From positions 2,944,001 through 3,008,000 of the forward strand of contig OZ245033.1 in assembly GCA_965224025.1 (NCBI GenBank): 64,000 bases of DNA. The letters are read 5' to 3'. Of the stretch, positions 51,998 to 60,821 are shown piece after piece. Each line of letters opens with the position of its first letter. Within the stretch, counting starts at the first letter, position 1. The notes below the pieces were generated by a model. It saw only the letters and a program-made list of their open reading frames with translations. It was not told the origin of the DNA and searched no databases. Made by a program: the position numbers and the translations under genes. Origin of the DNA: Candidatus Multivorans sp. Its GTDB lineage: Bacteria; Acidobacteriota; Thermoanaerobaculia; Multivoradales; Multivoraceae.

Positions 51998-52155
51998 CTT
52001 CCGGGAGTTCTGTCGCGCTAGCGAGCGCCACTCCGCGAGTCGTCCCGGTGCGGCCCGAAACCCTCGCGCCGGCTCCGCGTAGGTTAGGACCATAGAATGC
52101 CCGCCATGAAACGACTGACCGGTGGAGTGCGTCCGCCGGTGCTACCGGTGCGCCG

Positions 52156-53385
52156 GTGAGCGCCCTGGCGAGTCCGGGCGGTGGCTCCGAGCCGCCGGCG
52201 CGACCGGATCTCTCCATCCTCCGCGCCGACGACGAGTACGAATACCGGCCTCGCCGGGGCCGCTACATCAAGTGGGGCATCTTCCTGGTGCTCGTCATAG
52301 CGGCGGTCTACGCATGGCGCACGGTGCCGTTCGACCAGTACGCGCCGTGGCTCATGCCCGAGGTGGAGACGGTGACCGTGCAGCGGCTGACGGCGGAGCA
52401 GGCGTCGGCGGTGCTCAACGCGACCGGCTACACGTACGCGCGGGTGCGGGCCGCCGTGGGAGCGAAGATCACGGGCCGGATCACGGAGCTCTACGTCGAC
52501 GAGGGGGACGCGGTGGCGGCCGGGGATCTGATCGCCGTACTGGACAGCAAGGATCTGGAGGCTGCGGTGCGTCGGGCCGAGGCGGCCCTGATCGAGTCGA
52601 CGGCGCGGCTTGCCGACGCGGTGCGCGAGGAGGGTCGTCAGCGCCGGGTCGTCGAGGCGGGCGTGGCCCCCAGTGCCGACCACGACGCGGCGATCACGAC
52701 GCTCCAGGTGGCGAAGGCCCAAGTCGGCACGGCGCGCGCCAACCTCGACTCGGTCCGGGCCCAGTTGGAGTACACGGTCATCCGCTCCCCGGTCGACGGC
52801 GTGGTCATCGAGCGCACGGTCGAAGTGGGCGAGATGGTGGCGCCGGGCGGGTTCACCAGCCAGCAGTCGACCGGGGCGCTGGTGCGGATCGCCGATCCGA
52901 CCTCCCTCGAGGTCGAGGCGGATATCAACGAGAGTTACATCGCCCGCATCGAACTCCGCCAGCCTGCCGCGATCCGGGTCGATGCCGTGCCCGACCACGA
53001 GTACAGCGGCAGTCTGCGCCAGATCGTGCCGACGGCCGATCGCCAGCGGGCCGTGGTCCAGGTCAAAGTGACGATCGACGACCGGGACGAACGCCTGGTG
53101 CCGGACATGAGCTGCACCGTGACCTTCCTGCAGGAGGGTACGGACCAGGCCGCGCTCGAGGCGGCGCCGAAGGTCTTGATTCCGGCGGTCGCGGTCGTGA
53201 CCGAAGGCGGCCGGAGCTACACCTGGGTTGTCCGGGATGGCGCCCTCGTCCGCTCGGCGATCGAGTTGGGCCTGGAGCAGGACACCGACTTCGAAGTGCT
53301 GTCGGGTTTGAGCGGCGGCGAAACGGTCGTGCGGCAACCGTCGGCGGATCTCGTCGACGGGATGCGGGTGCGCGAGGTCTCGTGA
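52156..53385 (+). CDS. Efflux periplasmic adaptor subunit (MacA/HlyD-like)
   Basis: TM anchor, GRITELYVDEGD, coiled coil, IRSPVDGVV, VEADINE, IVPTADRQRA. Confidence 0.9.
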   Translation: MSALASPGGGSEPPARPDLSILRADDEYEYRPRRGRYIKWGIFLVLVIAAVYAWRTVPFDQYAPWLMPEVETVTVQRLTAEQASAVLNATGYTYARVRAAVGAKITGRITELYVDEGDAVAAGDLIAVLDSKDLEAAVRRAEAALIESTARLADAVREEGRQRRVVEAGVAPSADHDAAITTLQVAKAQVGTARANLDSVRAQLEYTVIRSPVDGVVIERTVEVGEMVAPGGFTSQQSTGALVRIADPTSLEVEADINESYIARIELRQPAAIRVDAVPDHEYSGSLRQIVPTADRQRAVVQVKVTIDDRDERLVPDMSCTVTFLQEGTDQAALEAAPKVLIPAVAVVTEGGRSYTWVVRDGALVRSAIELGLEQDTDFEVLSGLSGGETVVRQPSADLVDGMRVREVS

Positions 53386-53398
53386 CCGCTTGGAGAGA

Positions 53399-53464
53399 AT
53401 GAGTGAAGCTGCACGAAGGGCGTCCGCTACAGAGGGCGCCATGGAGGATCTGATCGATGACTGA
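53399..53464 (+). CDS. Putative 21-aa peptide A (MSEAARRASATEGAMEDLIDD)
   Basis: GGAG upstream; first of two 58-bp units; stop overlaps the next ATG region. Confidence 0.45.
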   Translation: MSEAARRASATEGAMEDLIDD

Positions 53465-53522
53465 AGCGGTGCGAAGAGGCGCGCGTACACACGGTGCCAT
53501 GGAGGCTCTGATCCATGGCTGA
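53457..53522 (+). CDS. Putative 21-aa peptide B ([21 protein letters not shown])
   Basis: GGAGG 9 nt upstream; 12/21 residues identical to peptide A; stop overlaps the ATPase start. Confidence 0.45.
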   Translation: MTEAVRRGARTHGAMEALIHG

Positions 53523-54219
53523 GACCGTCGTCCAACTGCGGGACGTGACGAAGAACTACCGGCGTGACGCCTTCGAGCTGAAGGTGCTGCAGGGGATCAC
53601 TCTCGATGTCGAACAGGGCGACTTCGTTGCCCTGATGGGACCCTCGGGCTCAGGCAAGAGCACGCTGCTCAACCTGCTCGCGGGCATCGACCAGCCGAGC
53701 AGCGGCGAACTGGTCGTGGCCGGGCAACAGGTCAGCCGACTGGGCGAGAGCAAGCTCGCACTGTGGCGTCAGCGTCACATCGGCTTCATCTTCCAGTTCT
53801 ACAACCTGATTCCGGTGCTCACGGCGTACGAGAACGTGGAACTGCCGCTCACCCTGCGACGATCGTCGAGGGCGGCGCGCAGGAAGCGAGTCGAGACCGC
53901 GCTCTCCGTGGTCGGCTTGCAGAACCGAATGAAGCACTATCCGCGGCAGCTCTCCGGCGGCCAGGAGCAGCGGGTGGCGATCGCCCGCGCGATCGTCACC
54001 GACCCGACGCTGCTGCTCGCCGACGAGCCGACCGGCGATCTGGACGCCGAGTCCGGCCGGGAGGTGCTGGACCTGCTCGGTCAGTTGAACGAGCAGTTCA
54101 ACAAGACGATCCTGATGGTGACGCATGATCCGAACGCCGCGGCGAGGGCCAAGCGCCTGTTGCGACTGGACAAGGGCCGCCTGGTTTCGTCGGAGCAGGG
54201 AGGAGGAGCGGGAGCATGA
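53515..54219 (+). CDS. ABC ATP-binding protein (MacB/LolD-like)
   Basis: [42 protein letters not shown]. Confidence 0.93.
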
Positions 54220-55361
54220 TCAAGCTGATTCGCCGCAACCTGCTGCGCAACAAGCGCCGCACCTTCCTGACCATGGCGAGTCTGGCGATGGCGCTGTTCA
54301 TCCTGTCGCTGCTGGGCGTCGTCAACGACGCGATGAGCTTCGCCGACGAGTCGGCGATCCCCGACCGGCTGGTCGTGCGCAACGCGATTTCGCTGACGTT
54401 CCCGTTGCCCGAGGCGTACGAGCAGCGGCTTCGAACGATCGACAACGTGGTGTCGGTGACACCCCAGAACTGGTTCCAGGGCGTCTACAAGGACCAGAGA
54501 CCCGAGAACTTCTTCCCGCGCTTCACGATCGATCCGGACACGTTCCGGAGTGTTTTCTACGACCTGGAGTGGGACGAGGAGGAGTGGGAGGCATTCGCGG
54601 CGCAGCGCACCGCCTTCGCGGCCGGCCGCGAGCTGACCGAGATCCAGGGGTGGTCGCTCGGCGACGTGATCACGATCAAGGGGGACATCTACCCGATCGA
54701 CGTGGAACTCCAGTTGCGCGCGATCTACGACTTCGACGAGCCGGGCCAGGAGCGGCAGATCTTCTTCCACCGGCGTTACGTCGAGGAGGCGATGGGCAAT
54801 CCCGGCCAGAACGGTACCTACTGGTTGCTGCTCGACGACCCGGAGGCCGCGCCCGCGGTCATTGCCGCAGCCGAGGCCATGTTCGAGAACTCGGACAACC
54901 AGGTGCGGGCGGAGACGGCAGAGGCGTTCGCGGCCTCGTTCACGGAGATGCTGGGCAACATCCAGTTCTTCTTCTCGATGATCGGGCTGGCGATCGTCAT
55001 CTCGATCTTCCTCATCACGGCGAACACGATGGCGATGGCGGCGCGCGAGCGGACCACCGAGGTTTCCGTGCTCCGTACCCTGGGCTTCCGGCGCAACCAG
55101 GTGCTCGGCATGGTGATCGGCGAGTCGCTGGCGGTAGGCGTGCTGGGCTCCGCGCTCGGCCTCGGCTTCACAGCGGTCGCCATTCAGGGTGCGACGCCGT
55201 TCCTGGAGCAAATGGGCTTCGGGTTTGGCGGGTTCGCACTCGACACTCAGGTCCTGGCGACCGCGGTCGCGATCGGTATCTCGGTAGGCCTGCTGAGCGG
55301 CGTCTTCCCGGCGGTCGCGGCGGCACGGCTCAAGATCGTCGACGGATTGAGGCGGCTGTGA
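54216..55361 (+). CDS. ABC permease (MacB/FtsX-like)
   Basis: RNLLRNKRRT, RERTTEVSVLRTLGF, 1+3 TM layout. Confidence 0.9.
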   Translation: MIKLIRRNLLRNKRRTFLTMASLAMALFILSLLGVVNDAMSFADESAIPDRLVVRNAISLTFPLPEAYEQRLRTIDNVVSVTPQNWFQGVYKDQRPENFFPRFTIDPDTFRSVFYDLEWDEEEWEAFAAQRTAFAAGRELTEIQGWSLGDVITIKGDIYPIDVELQLRAIYDFDEPGQERQIFFHRRYVEEAMGNPGQNGTYWLLLDDPEAAPAVIAAAEAMFENSDNQVRAETAEAFAASFTEMLGNIQFFFSMIGLAIVISIFLITANTMAMAARERTTEVSVLRTLGFRRNQVLGMVIGESLAVGVLGSALGLGFTAVAIQGATPFLEQMGFGFGGFALDTQVLATAVAIGISVGLLSGVFPAVAAARLKIVDGLRRL

Positions 55362-55392: not shown

Positions 55393-56550
55393 ATGATCCC
55401 GATCAAGTACACCTACCGCAACTTGTTCGAGCGCCGAGGCGTGGCCTTCATGACACTGGCTTCGATCGGATTCGTCGTCCTCGTCTACATCGGCGTGCTC
55501 GCCCTCGCCGGCGGCCTGCGGGCCGCGTTCGCGGACACCGGGGACCCCTCGGTCGTCATCGTGATGCGGGACGGCACCCGCGCCGAGATGGAGAGTTCCT
55601 ACGCGCAGGAGAGCCACCGCCTCCTGACCGCGATGCCGGGCGTCGAGCGGACGGCCGGCGGCGACGTGGCGGCGTCCGGCGAGACGGTGACGATCCAGAT
55701 CTTCGAGCGGGTCGACGGTACCGAAACGAACGTGATGGTCCGTGGGGTGGAGCCCGGAGGGTTCGCCATCCGGCCTACTTTCGAGATCACGGAGGGCCGG
55801 CGCTTCGAGCCCGGCCGAGGTGAGATCATCGTCGGCCGCAGCCTGGCCGGCCGGCTTGGCCTGCGGGTCGGCGACGAGCGCGAGTTGGGGCGGAACACGT
55901 TCCGGGTCGTCGGCCTGTTCACCGGCGTGGGCGCCCACGGTTCCGAGATCTGGGGCGACTACCGCGACCTGGGCGACTCGTTCCGCCGCAGTGGCTACTA
56001 CTCCTCGACCCGGCTCCAGGCGGCGTCGCCGGCGGCCGCCCGGGACCTGATCGAGACGGTCAAGGCCGAGCAGCGGCTCCAGGTGCAGGCCCTTTCGGAA
56101 CCCGAGTACTACGAGCTCCAGTCGGAAACGTCATCGGGCCAGTTCATCATCCTCGGCAACGTGCTGGCCGTGCTGATGGCGGTCGGCGCCTGCTTCGCCG
56201 CCGCGAACACGATGTACGCTCAGGTCGCCGCGCGCGCCCGCGAGATCGGCACCCTGCGCGCCCTCGGTTTCAAGCGGCGCTCGATCATGGGCAGCTTCTT
56301 CCTGGAAGCGGTGCTGCTCGGAGTGGTCGCCGGCGGTTTCGGTGCCCTGCTGTCGCTGCCGCTCAACGCGATCCAGACCGGCACGATGAACCAGGTCACG
56401 TTCAGCGAGATCACGTTCCAGTTGCGAACGACGCCGTTCGCCCTCTTTTCGGGCATCTTCCTGGCCACCGTGACCGGCGTCCTCGGCGGCCTGCTGCCGG
56501 CCTTCGGCGCCTCGCGCCAGAAGATCACGGACCTCCTGCGAGAGGCGTAG
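55393..56550 (+). CDS. ABC permease (MacB/FtsX-like)
   Basis: RAREIGTLRALGF, GGLLPA; AAGGAG SD. Confidence 0.9.
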   Translation: MIPIKYTYRNLFERRGVAFMTLASIGFVVLVYIGVLALAGGLRAAFADTGDPSVVIVMRDGTRAEMESSYAQESHRLLTAMPGVERTAGGDVAASGETVTIQIFERVDGTETNVMVRGVEPGGFAIRPTFEITEGRRFEPGRGEIIVGRSLAGRLGLRVGDERELGRNTFRVVGLFTGVGAHGSEIWGDYRDLGDSFRRSGYYSSTRLQAASPAAARDLIETVKAEQRLQVQALSEPEYYELQSETSSGQFIILGNVLAVLMAVGACFAAANTMYAQVAARAREIGTLRALGFKRRSIMGSFFLEAVLLGVVAGGFGALLSLPLNAIQTGTMNQVTFSEITFQLRTTPFALFSGIFLATVTGVLGGLLPAFGASRQKITDLLREA

Positions 56551-56617
56551 GGGGGCGCCCGCCCCCCTCAGCGGAGCCGGCCTTCGGCCGGCGCGTTTCC
56601 TGGCCGCCTTCGGCGGC

Positions 56618-56776
56618 AGCGGACCAGAAGGTCCGCGCACCCAGAGAACGGGAGGAGATTCCGCGGGACGCTTTGCTGCAGTCTGGGAAGGCTCGCAGCG
56701 GCGTCATGTCATTTGCATGTAGAGAACCTCGCCACACCGGGGTGGTTCTCTGGGTGCGCGGACCCTCTGGTCCGCT
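56618..56776. repeat. Third copy of the REP-ended element, inverted relative to 19625 and 19893
   Basis: Same terminal repeats; interior reverse complement matches CACCCCGGTG..GTTCTCTACATGC..TGACATGACGCCGCTG..ACTGCAGCA..TCCCGCGGAA. Confidence 0.88.
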
Positions 56777-56958
56777 GCCGGGCGCCGCCACGAAGCGGCG
56801 GGCGATACACCGCGTGTAGTCTCTTTAGATGCCCATCAGCTCCGCGCTCAAGCGGTGCTCCGGCCAGCCACGGCCGGCCTCTCGCCACCTCTGCTCAACG
56901 CTCGTCGCAGTGGCTCTCGTGCTTGCAGGATGCGCCGACGCACCCGCGCCTCCACTAG

Positions 56959-58927
56959 CCCGAAGTTCTGAGCTTCAAGTCGTGAAATCGCCTGTAGTGG
57001 TGGGCGTTTTCAGTTGTTCGGCGGTGTCTTGTACTGGGTACGTCGGCTTCAGGGGCGGATGCCGAGTAGTTTGAAGGCTTCGTTCTGGAGTGGAGTGGGC
57101 CGTGCGAGGACGTCGGCTGTGGAGTCGGCGTCGCCGTGCATCCGCACCCGGTTTCGGGTCAGCGTGGCCAGGTCGGCGAGCAAGGTCTGGAAGCTGTGGA
57201 CGGGGAGTCCGTCGGGGGTCCTCCGGGAGTTGGCCTTGGCCATCGCCTCGGGCGACCTGCGCGCGGGATCGACGGGCGACTCGCGTTGGCCGTCGCGGCG
57301 TTGGTCGTCGAAGAGGATGGGCGCCAGGGTCCGGCGCATGTGCCACTCGACGTAGTAGGCGAGCATGCAGAGGAAGACGTGGGCGCGCACCCTCGAGGCC
57401 AGGCGATGGTGGACGGGGCGCACCTTGAGGTCGACGCTCTTGAAGGAGCGGAAGGCGCGTTCGACGCGGCTGAGGCTCTTGTAGGCGCGGACCGCATCGG
57501 CTGCCGGCAGTTCGTTTTCGGGGACGTTGGTGCGGATGACGTAGAAGCCGTCGAGAGCGGCTTCCTCGGCGATGCGCGCCTCGTTGCGGCGGTATTGGAA
57601 GCCGTCCTCTTCGATCTCGACCTCGAAGTGCTTGCCGACCTTGTAGGCGCCCCGGGCGCGGTCCGCGCGCACGGCGATGGCGTCCTTGCCGCGCAGGGGG
57701 TTCTTCTTGCGCCGCGTCGCCGCAACGACGGCGTCGAGCTTGCGCTCGGTGGATTCGAGAAGCTCCTGGCGCTTGCGGCCGCGTTCCTCCGCCAGAAGCG
57801 GGTTCCGGCACACCACGAGGCGCTCCTTCGGGTACAGCTCCGGAACCCTGATCTCGGCCATCTTCCGCTGGTCGAAGAGCGACAGTTGCAGGTGGCCTTC
57901 CTGGGCCAGCGTCCTGATCGCCGGCGCGCGCAGGGCGCTGATCCAGGACAGGCCCGCGGGGTCGAGGTCCTCGCGGATGCGCGCGTCGGTGATCAGGCCC
58001 CGGTCTGAGACCATCACGATCCTCTCCAGCGAGAAGCGGTCGCGGAGCTTCTGCACCTGGGCGTTCAGGGTCGTCGGATCGGCCGTGTTGCCCTCGAATA
58101 CCTCGACCGCGACCGGGCATCCGTCCCGGCTGCAGAGCAGGCCGAAGACGATCTGGACCTTGCCTCTCTTCTTGTCCCTGGAGTAGCCGTGCCTGGCCAG
58201 CGTGCACTTCCTGCCCTCAAAGTAGACCGAGGTCACGTCGCAGAGCACCAGCGAGCCGTCTTCCAGATGCCGCCGGGCAAGAGTCCGCTCGATGCGCGGC
58301 TGTCTTTCGAGCAGCCAGTCCATGGCGCCGTAGAGTTCGTCGGCCGAGGCCTCCTGCACGCCGAGTTCCTCGCCGAGGGTGTGGCTCATGGTCTCGCTTG
58401 CGAGTCCGCGGGCGGTGGCGAGCTTGGATCGCGGCTCGAGGATGCGGGCCGCGATCATGGCCAGCGCCAGCGCCCGCTCGCGCGAGGGCCGTCGATCGAG
58501 GAGCCGTTCGAGGCCGAGGCTTCGGGCCGCGCCGAGGACGGCGGCGACGTGGCCGTGCGGTCTGGCGCGCAGGATCTCGAAGGCGGCCTCGAGCGAAGGC
58601 AGGGCGACTCCTCCCTTGAGCAGGGTTCTGAGTCCTTCGACGAGTTGATCGGGCCACTTGGAGAGGTTGGCGAGAGTGCGTTTCTTGACCTTTCCGTCCT
58701 GTCGGTGGGACTCTCTCAGCAGGACGGCTGGTGGTGAGTTTCGGTTGGGTACCCGTTCGATGTACATGGCTTCTCATTGTAGACGAAACCATTCAGAATG
58801 TCTACATGCCACGAGATCATTACATGGCTACCAATGGCGGAAAACAGGGGCGGCCCAACACCCGAAAACCCAAGCACTGCAACGCCTCTCGACGACGAGG
58901 AGGCCCCAGGAGCCTCAGAACTTCGGA
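56959..58927 (-). mobile_element. IS1634-family insertion sequence, about 1.97 kb
   Basis: Ends CCCGAAGTTCTGAG / CTCAGAACTTCGGA, flanked by duplicated CTAG (56955-56958, 58928-58931). Confidence 0.9.
57049..58767 (-). CDS. IS1634-family DDE transposase
   Basis: MYIERVPNRNSPPAVLLRES, CDVTSVYFEG, GYSRD, SDRGL, YKSLSRVERAFR, RVRAHVFLCMLAY. Confidence 0.93.
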   Translation of the reverse strand: MYIERVPNRNSPPAVLLRESHRQDGKVKKRTLANLSKWPDQLVEGLRTLLKGGVALPSLEAAFEILRARPHGHVAAVLGAARSLGLERLLDRRPSRERALALAMIAARILEPRSKLATARGLASETMSHTLGEELGVQEASADELYGAMDWLLERQPRIERTLARRHLEDGSLVLCDVTSVYFEGRKCTLARHGYSRDKKRGKVQIVFGLLCSRDGCPVAVEVFEGNTADPTTLNAQVQKLRDRFSLERIVMVSDRGLITDARIREDLDPAGLSWISALRAPAIRTLAQEGHLQLSLFDQRKMAEIRVPELYPKERLVVCRNPLLAEERGRKRQELLESTERKLDAVVAATRRKKNPLRGKDAIAVRADRARGAYKVGKHFEVEIEEDGFQYRRNEARIAEEAALDGFYVIRTNVPENELPAADAVRAYKSLSRVERAFRSFKSVDLKVRPVHHRLASRVRAHVFLCMLAYYVEWHMRRTLAPILFDDQRRDGQRESPVDPARRSPEAMAKANSRRTPDGLPVHSFQTLLADLATLTRNRVRMHGDADSTADVLARPTPLQNEAFKLLGIRP

Positions 58928-60821
58928 CTAGAGCCGCCCCTCCCCAACATCGTCCTCATCGTCCCCGACGACCTCGGCCGCCACGACGTGAGCTTCCACG
59001 GCGGCGAGATCGCGACGCCGAACATCGACCGCATCGCGGCCGAGGGAGTGCTGATCGAGCGCTTCTACAGTGCGCCCGTCTGCTCGCCGACCCGGGCTGG
59101 CCTGATGACCGGCCGCTATCCGATCCGTTTCGGGCTGATGCGGGCGGTGATCGCGCCCTGGCGGGACTACGGTCTCGACACGTCGGAGGTCGCCCTGCCG
59201 GAAGTGTTGGCCCGTGCCGGTTACGAACACCGCGGCATCTTCGGCAAGTGGCACCTGGGCCACTTCGACCGCAAGTACCACCCGCTGCGCCGGGGCTTCA
59301 CGGAGTTCGTGGGCCACAACACGGCGGTCGACTACTTCACGAAGGAGCGGGAGGGCGAGCGGGACTGGAGCCACGACTACGAGTCGGTGGACGAGGAGGG
59401 GTACGTCACGGACCTGCTGACCGAGCACGCGGTGGGGTTCATCGATCGCCATGCCGGCAGTGAGGCGCCGTTCTTCCTCTACGTCCCGTTCAGCGCTCCG
59501 CATTATGAGGACCTGGACGCGCTCGAGCCGCCGCGCGGCTGGGAGGAATCGACGGCTGGCCGGCCGCTTGCCGCCGATGACCGGCGGCGCGACGGCAGCC
59601 GCATTCACGCCGCGATGGTCCACGCGCTAGATCAGTGCGTCGGCCGCGTCCTCGACGCGCTCGACGATCACGGAATCGCCGACAACACGCTCGTGCTCTT
59701 CTTCAGCGACAACGGCGGCTCCGTCGGCATCGGTGACACCGGCCCGTACCGGGGCGCCAAGGGCAGCGTCTTCGAAGGAGGCACCCGGGTCGCGGCTGCG
59801 GCGCGCTGGCCGGCGGGGAACATCTCGGGTGGCGGCCGGATCGAGGCGCCGGTGTCGTACATCGACGTGCTACCGACGCTGATGGGCATTGCCGGCCTCG
59901 ACGATCACGGCGGTAAGCCGTTGGACGGCCGGGATGTTGGTGACGTGCTGACGGGAGAGGCCGAGGCCGGACCGGAGCGCGATCTCTACTCCTTCATCGC
60001 CCAGCTCGACCCGGAGCGCGAGCAGGTCTCGGTGACGGAGGCCGAGTGGAAGCTCGTTGTGGTCGGGCCGCCGCTGGTTCGTGAGGGCGCGGTGGACGCG
60101 TCGCGGACGATGCTGTTCCGGCTTGCAGGGGATCCTCTGGAAGAACTGGACGTGGCGGCTGACCATCCCGATCTGGTGGCTCGGCTGGTCGAGAAGGCGG
60201 CCGACTTCCGGGCATTGCAGCCGCCGAATCCGGTGGCGCCGTTCTTCGCAGGCCGCGACGACTACCTGGTCTGGCACTACCACGAGAAGGGTAAGCGGTA
60301 CGCCGATCCGCTGCTGTGGGGTCCTGGCGGGGAGGGCGGGACCCACGAGGGGCAGTACGGCCCCGATCTGTTTGTGGACTTCCTGCTCGACCGGATCGAG
60401 CGGAGGGACGACGCCGGAGAAGCAGTGCCGGTCGAGCGGACGTGGGTGCACGGGTTCATCATCTACACGGCGTCCGGGCACATGGCCGTTCACCTGGTGC
60501 GGCCTGACCGCCAGGCCTTCGCCGGCCCTCGCCCGACCGCCGAGGAGGCGGCCTCCGCGATGCGGACGTACATCAGCTACTTCGGGCCGTACACGATCCA
60601 CGCGGACGACGGCTACATCGTTCACCACCGGTCCGGCTGCTGGTTCCCGAATTGCATGGACACGGATGCTCAGCGCTTCTACGAGTTCGGAGAGCGAACG
60701 CTGACGCTCCAGCCTCCGGCTCGGGAGGTGGATGGGAACATGGTTCAGGACTCGTTCGTGTGGGAGCAGATCGGGGAGTAGCGGCGGTCATTGCGCTTGG
60801 CCCGGACCAAACTGGCGCACG

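Follow-up and report, generated by a model that had tools for sequence, protein, structure and literature searches.

Mycobacterial interspersed repetitive units (MIRUs), which reportedly go back to Supply et al. in 1997, are repeats with which the element described here invites comparison. This element is a pair of tandem 58-nt units in the gap between the periplasmic adaptor gene and the ATPase gene of a MacAB-like ABC exporter operon in Candidatus Multivorans sp. (Acidobacteriota), and it lies in a 64,000-nt stretch of contig OZ245033.1 (positions 2,944,001 to 3,008,000 of the forward strand), hereafter called the window. As described in passages of three papers (PMC12548453, PMC3184786, PMC3635867), MIRUs are units of 40-100 bp that are located in the intergenic regions of operons and are co-transcribed; the overlap of their open reading frames (ORFs) with adjacent genes keeps the downstream gene coupled. 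According to the same passages, MIRU copy number differs between strains, and the units form one sequence family at some 40-50 loci and are thought to insert as mobile units. Translational coupling is attributed, in sections of PMC12548453 and of Huber et al. 2019 (PMC6728339), to termination-reinitiation or to RNA unfolding at stop-start pairs that are close together or overlap. In the bicistronic design (BCD), as outlined in parts of PMC5995908 and PMC12548453, a short leader cistron, whose 3' coding portion contains a second Shine-Dalgarno sequence, overlaps at its end the start of the target gene.

We found that the gap in the window is best read as two diverged tandem copies of the ATPase initiation region, forming a near-neutral minisatellite that would relay ribosomes to the true start, and we place the probability of this reading at about 0.75. 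Sequence comparison with relatives showed a local duplication in one subclade of the genus, which was followed by gain, loss and recombination of copies. The duplicated stretch would comprise the former spacer between the adaptor and ATPase genes, including its Shine-Dalgarno sequence, together with the ATG and the opening codons of the ATPase gene. Ribosomes would initiate at the decoy ATGs and finish translation at, or right next to, the following ATG, where they would either re-initiate or open a hairpin that is predicted over the ATPase start. ATPase expression would survive the insertion, with the gap of about 130 nt remaining translated, and the array, which is one of at least seven start-region duplications of 56-59 nt in this genome, would be a tolerated minisatellite of local making, comparable in its working to a MIRU or a bicistronic coupler.

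The two 58-nt units and their origin

The 129 nt between the adaptor stop codon (TGA, 53383-53385) and the ATPase ATG consisted of a 13-nt leader and two 58-nt units (Table 1). A preliminary description of this locus, made from the letters of the window, had reported two tandem 58-bp units with 42/58 identical positions, each opening with ATG and carrying GGAGG for the next ATG, and each having a stop that overlaps the next start. Direct reading of the sequence and a repeat search bore out all of these points. The units form a direct tandem pair with 72% identity and a spacing of 58, and their 42 matches were the maximum for adjacent 58-mers in the window, reached at this site alone (mean 15.2, standard deviation 3.5). 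At least 38 matches were retained for start positions from 53394 to 53417, so that the repeat reaches into the first 15 nt or so of the ATPase gene. No repeat between 53000 and 54000 was reported by Tandem Repeats Finder at a minimum score of 30, because the unit pair is too diverged for its scoring. Each unit ORF comprises 21 codons, that of unit 1 reading MSEAARRASATEGAMEDLIDD up to its stop, and the TGA of each ORF overlaps the following start by 8 nt (ATGNNTGA). The GGAGG motif lies 9 nt 5' of the following ATG in both cases. The 16S rRNA of this genome, whose gene was located by an Rfam model, has the 3' end ..GGATCACCTCCTTTCT with the terminal letters ..CACCUCCUUUCU, and it contains the anti-Shine-Dalgarno sequence CCUCC. 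The array thereby shows the arrangement of a coupled gene pair, namely an upstream stop on or near a downstream start (here in 8-nt overlaps) together with an upstream Shine-Dalgarno sequence (GGAGG). The GGAGG and ATG of unit 2 were invariant in eight two-unit loci, a pattern that hints weakly at continued translation of the gap.

The last 38 nt of both units, anchored at the ATG, matched the spacers of the far clade in register at 14-22 of 38 positions. For nine of the 12 spacers the score was 18-22/38, a level that only 0.002-0.3% of the 38-mers in the window reach. Additionally, both units open with ATG RCT GAR, like the ATG GCT GAG of the ATPase gene. Codons 2 and 3 of the ATPase gene (GCT GAG) contain TGA in the +2 frame, and therefore any unit that copies the start and has a length of 3n+1 closes its own frame on the following start. 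Since 58 is 3n+1, the 21-codon decoy ORF arises automatically, without selection. Units of length 3n stopped at the TGA of CTGATC, 3 nt 5' of the following ATG (L015 and unit 1 of L014), and the unit of length 3n+2 (L013) read 34 nt into the ATPase gene.

The preliminary description had proposed comparing unit number among orthologous operons, and upon this comparison we found zero, one or two units among 45 non-redundant orthologous junctions, with basal and distant relatives lacking units. The junctions were taken from genomes and metagenome contigs, the genus being represented by 42 species genomes in the collection, and they yielded 38 distinct gap sequences. Nine of these contained two units (the window, L010, L107, L117=L118, L119, L083, L016, L049 and L014), six contained one unit (L011, L045, L013, L015, L017 and L120), and the remaining 23 contained none. 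The distant genus members, whose adaptors are about 78% identical, had a plain spacer of 27-60 nt ending in ..GAGGGAGCTGATAG ATG GCT GAA, except for L020. In the adaptor tree, the unitless L046 was basal to the unit-bearing clade, and the unitless L012/L110 were nested inside it; judging from these sequences, L012/L110 represent a secondary loss of units. The ATPase start of L012, ATGGCTGAAGCGGTC, resembled a hybrid between a unit start and an ATPase start. The adaptor and ATPase trees conflicted in the placement of the window genes: the window adaptor grouped with L014/L011/L045 and the window ATPase with L010/L016/L012 (synonymous differences of 0.24 versus 0.35-0.37, and the reverse). This conflict suggests a recombination breakpoint near the adaptor-ATPase junction.

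Unit DNA had no second place in its own genome at E < 0.1. Ten of the 41 other genomes of the genus matched it, at one place each, with nine matches at this locus and one 22-nt stray (E 0.005); a dispersed mobile element was ruled out by this restriction to the unit's own locus.

The preliminary description had offered two readings, a small peptide serving as cargo or regulator of the exporter and a relay of coupled translation that arose through the duplication of a gene junction. At the sequence level, the relay was supported by the varying unit number, the unitless basal and distant relatives, the in-register spacer match and the presence of the same architecture at other loci of this genome, which are described below. 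The peptide reading found no such support.

Some gaps contained other material. That of L017 was 194 nt long, with about 120 extra nt, CTGGAGAC occurring three times at a spacing of about 20 nt, 5' of its single unit, and that of the distant relative L020 was 130 nt long with an unrelated insert of about 90 nt. Judging from the gap sequences, the adaptor-ATPase junction is an insertion hot spot. L041 (L208, G065) carried the L014 gap, and its ATPase gene was interrupted after about codon 18 by an IS3-type insertion sequence (IS) roughly 1.6 kb long; this element has OrfA/OrfB, including an integrase-like part, and showed a direct repeat of about 5 bp. The exporter of this genome is probably dead.

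All runs used as read evidence were in the form of Logan contigs, in which uncovered parts carry no meaning. One run (X1) contained the window's form and a second, diverged two-unit contig with 63 differences over the window junction. Three RNA libraries contributed contigs with 85-95% likeness to the window, which thus came from relatives; these contigs lay over unit 1 (X23), spanned unit 2 and the ATPase start (X20) or spanned an L012-like junction with no unit (X21). They were not counted as evidence of transcription, because RNA libraries can hold DNA and the contigs had no transcript ends. Another contig of the genome (C2:46649-47170) carried the hisIE region once more, at 84% identity. 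This copy and the diverged X1 contig point to the apparent coexistence of a related strain, part of which may have been binned together with this genome (contamination figure 5.66).

Duplications of 56-59 nt across the genome

The whole genome that contains the window was scanned for adjacent tandem copies. The scan revealed 30 repeats with a period of 40-300 nt that is not divisible by three, and 15 of these had a period of 56 (three repeats), 58 (seven) or 59 nt (five). Thirteen of the 15 were locus-specific and built from local sequence at 13 loci: seven spanned a gene start or junction, three lay where genes converge at their 3' ends, and the last three occupied non-coding sites of other kinds. 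The seven start loci were a Glyoxalase_3 gene, a ManC-like nucleotidyl transferase, tig/clpP, hisIE, a Sir2 gene, a TonB_2/PD40 (tolA/tolB-like) junction and the ABC locus. Example positions on contig C1 are 469340, 1182898, 1530619, 2392220, 2849454 and 3474797, and the window unit is at C1:2997398. Each start duplication contained a decoy ORF of 17-21 codons that ended on the true start, in an ATGA or GTGA overlap, or at most 4 nt from it.

The 58-nt unit at tig/clpP consisted of the first 12 clpP codons, followed in the same frame by the final 5 codons and the stop of tig. By eye, GGAGA could be made out at the two clpP breakpoints. Thirty loci (L215-L244) were examined, and all but L244, which was not placed between anchors, could be scored. 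Unit number was zero in 14 and one in 14 of these 29 loci, and it was two only in the genome of the window (C1:1530599-1530714), where the second clpP unit is 98% identical and, to judge from this identity, recent. All 14 one-unit genomes kept the decoy ATG and a stop codon (TAA in two, TGA in four and TAG in eight) 2-4 nt before the clpP ATG. Since the stop was kept in every case through three different stop codons, this result suggests selection on termination or ribosome hand-over, not on the peptide. In the comparison of hisIE loci (L245-L274), the 59-nt copy (C1:2392220-2392337) was private to the genome of the window, its four nearest relatives being 59 nt shorter, and G062 and G024 carried an independent 75-nt duplication at the hisIE start, with two extra copies.

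Several other origins were considered and rejected. A genus-wide hisIE duplication was dismissed, as the similar length seen in many distant relatives reflected an insert resembling repetitive extragenic palindromic (REP) elements. An IS footprint or a 58-bp target duplication was dismissed because the eight full-length IS1634-family copies in the genome, seven at 99-100% identity and one at 80%, had no long flanking repeat. The IS3-type insert of L041 has only its short repeat, and the dispersed direct repeats of 50-66 nt were REP-like and not the flanks of one element.

We tentatively propose, as a possibility that falls well short of even odds, that a length-ruled duplication process acts across the genome and that start-spanning copies persist by means of self-terminating relay ORFs of 17-21 codons. 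Convergent 3' ends and other non-coding sites were affected, and therefore translation alone cannot set the length. Candidate rulers, which are speculative, are slippage across one stretch of single-stranded DNA wrapped by single-stranded DNA-binding protein (SSB) or a novel enzyme. If this proposal is true, a molecular ruler of about 58 nt could also shape MIRU-like minisatellites in high-G+C bacteria. Many variable-number tandem repeat units of M. tuberculosis measure 51-59 bp, which would echo the peak at 56-59 nt found here. In word searches of open-access text, neither junction duplications of local making nor a preference for 56-59 nt turned out to have been described, and a search for 'Candidatus Multivorans' returned no papers. 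This length preference is the most interesting loose end of the analysis.

Selection on the units and alternative explanations

Site variability was compared in seven two-unit loci, using the units and 300 nt from each flanking gene. In the flanking genes, 23/400 sites at codon positions 1+2 and 77/200 sites at position 3 were variable; the corresponding figures for the units were 25/78 and 15/38. As evident from these counts, codon periodicity was absent from the units (P=0.53), which were as variable as position 3 of the genes (P=0.55) and, at positions 1+2, far more variable than the genes (P=1e-9). The pairwise difference of unit 1 was 0.15 and equal across the three codon positions, and that of unit 2 was 0.085 versus 0.087 at third codon positions in the initial 90 nt of the ATPase gene. 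Among the indels in relatives, two preserved the frame (+6 and +3) and three shifted it (-1, -5 and +1); the +1 destroyed an ATG, and the one ATG lost was that of unit 1 in L083. Twenty of 24 units kept the overlap, two stopped 3 nt before the following ATG, one ran 34 nt into the ATPase gene, and one had no ATG. Of 180 single-base changes per unit, no more than 4 introduce a stop, so that open frames are expected by chance. The 21-mers had no match in Pfam or NCBIfam, where models for 21-mers are few. We found neither purifying selection on the amino acids nor preservation of the frame in orthologues, as would mark a functional small protein. These sequence comparisons showed that the peptides have no sequence-level function and drift like synonymous sites.

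The preliminary description had also seen a 6-codon ORF, MTAWRE, linking the adaptor stop to the first unit. The frame exists, but its role as a real linking ORF was not upheld. Its GTG was present in only 2/9 two-unit relatives (L009 and L014), the remainder reading TCC TGA, and the leader was the most variable stretch, with indels and a pairwise difference of 0.42 among the seven two-unit loci. Moreover, MTAWRE forms the end of a longer shadow frame (426 codons) that matched nothing in Pfam, and we judged MTAWRE on sequence grounds to be a chance frame.

The hairpin predicted at the end of the gap (Table 1) would hide the ATPase AUG and a portion of the Shine-Dalgarno sequence. The computed cost of freeing positions -16 to +5 around the AUG was 13.8 kcal/mol here and 13.6 in L014, and 4.9-10.4 in 20 other orthologues. 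The predicted start hairpin is thus specific to the lineage of the window genome and L014 and is not a conserved feature; a ribosome that translates the unit-2 ORF would melt it. The 170-nt region folded no better than shuffled sequences (z = -1.1; 23 of 200 shuffles folded as well), and no Rfam 15 family matched at its gathering score. The best Rfam candidate, malK-III (26.3 bits versus 50), covered 53319-53405, which is mostly the coding end of the adaptor, and was absent from 14 orthologous loci; we judged it to be a chance match.

Both frames are open, with an ATG and GGAGG, inside an exporter operon, and most units in relatives stay open to the following start, as would be expected if the two ORFs encoded functional 21-residue peptides of the exporter (cargo, immunity or regulatory). 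This explanation is nevertheless extremely improbable and, at the level of sequence, largely refuted. Open frames are expected by chance, and the overlap of stop and start follows from GCT GAG. The missing codon periodicity, the synonymous-like rate, the lost ATG and the absence of a Pfam or NCBIfam family all speak against the cargo or regulators that the preliminary description had envisaged; it had named frame-breaking indels in relatives as an outcome that would tell against peptides and had called for a codon-level comparison, and we found such indels and no codon-level conservation. Units were also absent from 23/38 distinct orthologous gaps, including those of close relatives, and the same architecture occurs at clpP, hisIE and other loci, where a cargo role is senseless. 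A role of the units as a cis-acting element at the RNA or DNA level (for instance a binding site, a processing or stabilising hairpin or an attenuator), with incidental ORFs, is likewise very unlikely. The low variation in the middle of unit 2 (CGAAGAGGCGCGCGTACACACGGCGC; 0.044), the small G+C hairpins that can be drawn mid-unit in each copy and the strong hairpin over the ATPase start in the window would fit such an element, but the folding result and the Rfam search lend it nothing, the start hairpin is strong in only 2/22 orthologues, the low variation of unit 2 matches that of the adjoining ATPase third positions, and no promoter-like or terminator-like site was found in the gap.

An inert spacer, in which the decoy ATGs are unused and the ATPase is translated solely from its own Shine-Dalgarno sequence, would be consistent with the intact GGAGG-N9-ATG that the duplication leaves for the ATPase, with the untranslated inserts tolerated in the gaps of L017 (194 nt) and L020 (130 nt), and with the loss of the unit-1 ATG in L083. 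We consider it unlikely, as the decoy ATGs share the GGAGG-N9 context of the real start, which leaves no reason for ribosomes to skip them. The invariance of the unit-2 GGAGG and ATG and the cost of opening the hairpin around the ATPase start in the window also argue against it, and the clpP decoy stop, kept in 14/14 genomes, points to selection on termination and hence to translation. The preferred reading, duplicated initiation regions that relay ribosomes, has points against it as well. The sequences compared are relatives, and the site and unit counts are not independent events. The middle 26 nt of unit 2 are less variable than the rest, the ATGGAGG..ATG motifs are invariant, and the units could have a nucleotide-level function beyond simple tolerance. 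The 15 nt after the unit ATG resemble the ATPase 5' end weakly (7/15 in unit 2, P=0.11; 5/15 in unit 1), and because of this weak likeness we can only infer the exact duplication boundaries. Decoy translation, re-initiation and hairpin opening are likewise putative steps, deduced from the sequence of an uncultured lineage.

The exporter operon and comparison with known systems

As shown in Table 1, the array is located between the first two genes of the operon. The preliminary description had placed it between the adaptor and the ATPase of a MacAB-like ABC operon, and the Pfam and NCBIfam matches agreed with this assignment. The adaptor matched NCBIfam RND_mfp with 199.5 bits (cut-off 94.9), and the top NCBIfam matches of the ATPase were LolD, DarD, YbbA and MacB, none reaching its equivalog cut-off. 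Two minus-strand frames over the region had no Pfam match.

Table 1. Features of the exporter operon and its surroundings (positions in the window)
Feature	Position	Strand	Match or basis
HlyD/RND_mfp-type periplasmic adaptor, first gene of the operon	52156..53385	+	Pfam HlyD_D23 5.5e-25, HlyD_3, Biotin_lipoyl_2
6-codon frame MTAWRE, GTG..TGA, overlapping the adaptor stop and the unit-1 ATG	53382..53402	+	
Purine-rich leader, 13 nt (..GGAGAGA), 5' of the first unit ATG	53386..53398	+	
Unit 1, 58 nt: ATG, about 40 drifted nt, GGAGG (53443-53447) for the unit-2 ATG	53399..53456	+	
Unit-1 ORF, 21 codons	53399..53464	+	
Unit 2, 58 nt: ATG, drifted middle, GGAGG (53501-53505) for the ATPase ATG	53457..53514	+	
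Unit-2 ORF, 21 codons	53457..53522	+	
Predicted RNA hairpin, GCCAUGGA / UCCAUGGC, 8 pairs, 8-nt loop	53496..53519	+	Minimum free energy fold
ABC ATPase (MacB/LolD/DevA-like nucleotide-binding subunit)	53515..54219	+	Pfam ABC_tran 1.3e-36
FtsX/MacB_PCD permease 1, ATGA-type overlap with the ATPase stop	54216..55361	+	Pfam FtsX 5.3e-14, MacB_PCD
FtsX/MacB_PCD permease 2	55393..56550	+	Pfam FtsX 1.5e-17, MacB_PCD 2.8e-14
Minus-strand frame	52084..53535	-	
Minus-strand frame	53063..53500	-	
Inverted repeat, 36 nt	56614..56649 / 56745..56780		
IS1634-family insertion sequence, 18-nt terminal inverted repeats	56955..58931		
IS1634-family transposase	57049..58767	-	NCBIfam, 345 bits

Directly 3' of permease 2 we observed a 36-nt inverted repeat, whose arms are 97% complementary and 95 nt apart. 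The repeat holds GGACC..GGTCC hairpin motifs that resemble those of REP-like elements elsewhere in the genome. An IS1634-family insertion sequence was present just 3' of the operon.

For annotation, the locus serves as a worked negative case: chains of micro-ORFs that are perfectly coupled and have good ribosome sites can arise free of charge from the duplication of a gene junction, and small-protein calls on such chains require a codon-level test. With this locus, the bacteria that make MIRU-like repeats of variable copy number from their own gene starts come to include an acidobacterial lineage, in which the repeats also reach housekeeping junctions such as those of tig/clpP and hisIE. The natural alleles with zero, one or two units are ready-made constructs with which re-initiation and RNA unfolding across an inserted cistron could be gauged.

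Upon comparison with the described systems, we found the array to be generally similar to each of them, although there were clear differences. As in translational coupling, the upstream ORF ends on or near the following start, the Shine-Dalgarno sequence lies inside the upstream ORF, and the hairpin predicted over the downstream start could be opened by an upstream ribosome. Whereas the known cases join two real genes, the ORFs here are decoys with no conserved product, chained twice and known from sequence alone. In contrast to the BCD, the array is natural and made by duplication, is present in two tandem copies and is located inside an operon rather than behind a promoter. MIRUs come closest among the described systems, and the likeness to them extends to the tandem 58-nt units inside an operon, which fall within the range of about 40-100 bp given in the passages of PMC3184786, to the unit ORFs of 21 codons that overlap the adjacent ORFs (here by 8 nt), and to the variable copy number (0, 1 or 2 in 45 loci). 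The overlap of 8 nt (ATGNNTGA) differs from the -4 spacing of MIRUs, and the host belongs to the Acidobacteriota, while the hosts of MIRUs belong to the Actinomycetota. A further difference is the dispersed family that characterizes MIRUs; the unit described here was confined to its own locus and derived from the local spacer and start. By analogy, the array would therefore work like a MIRU without being one, because it belongs to no dispersed sequence family.

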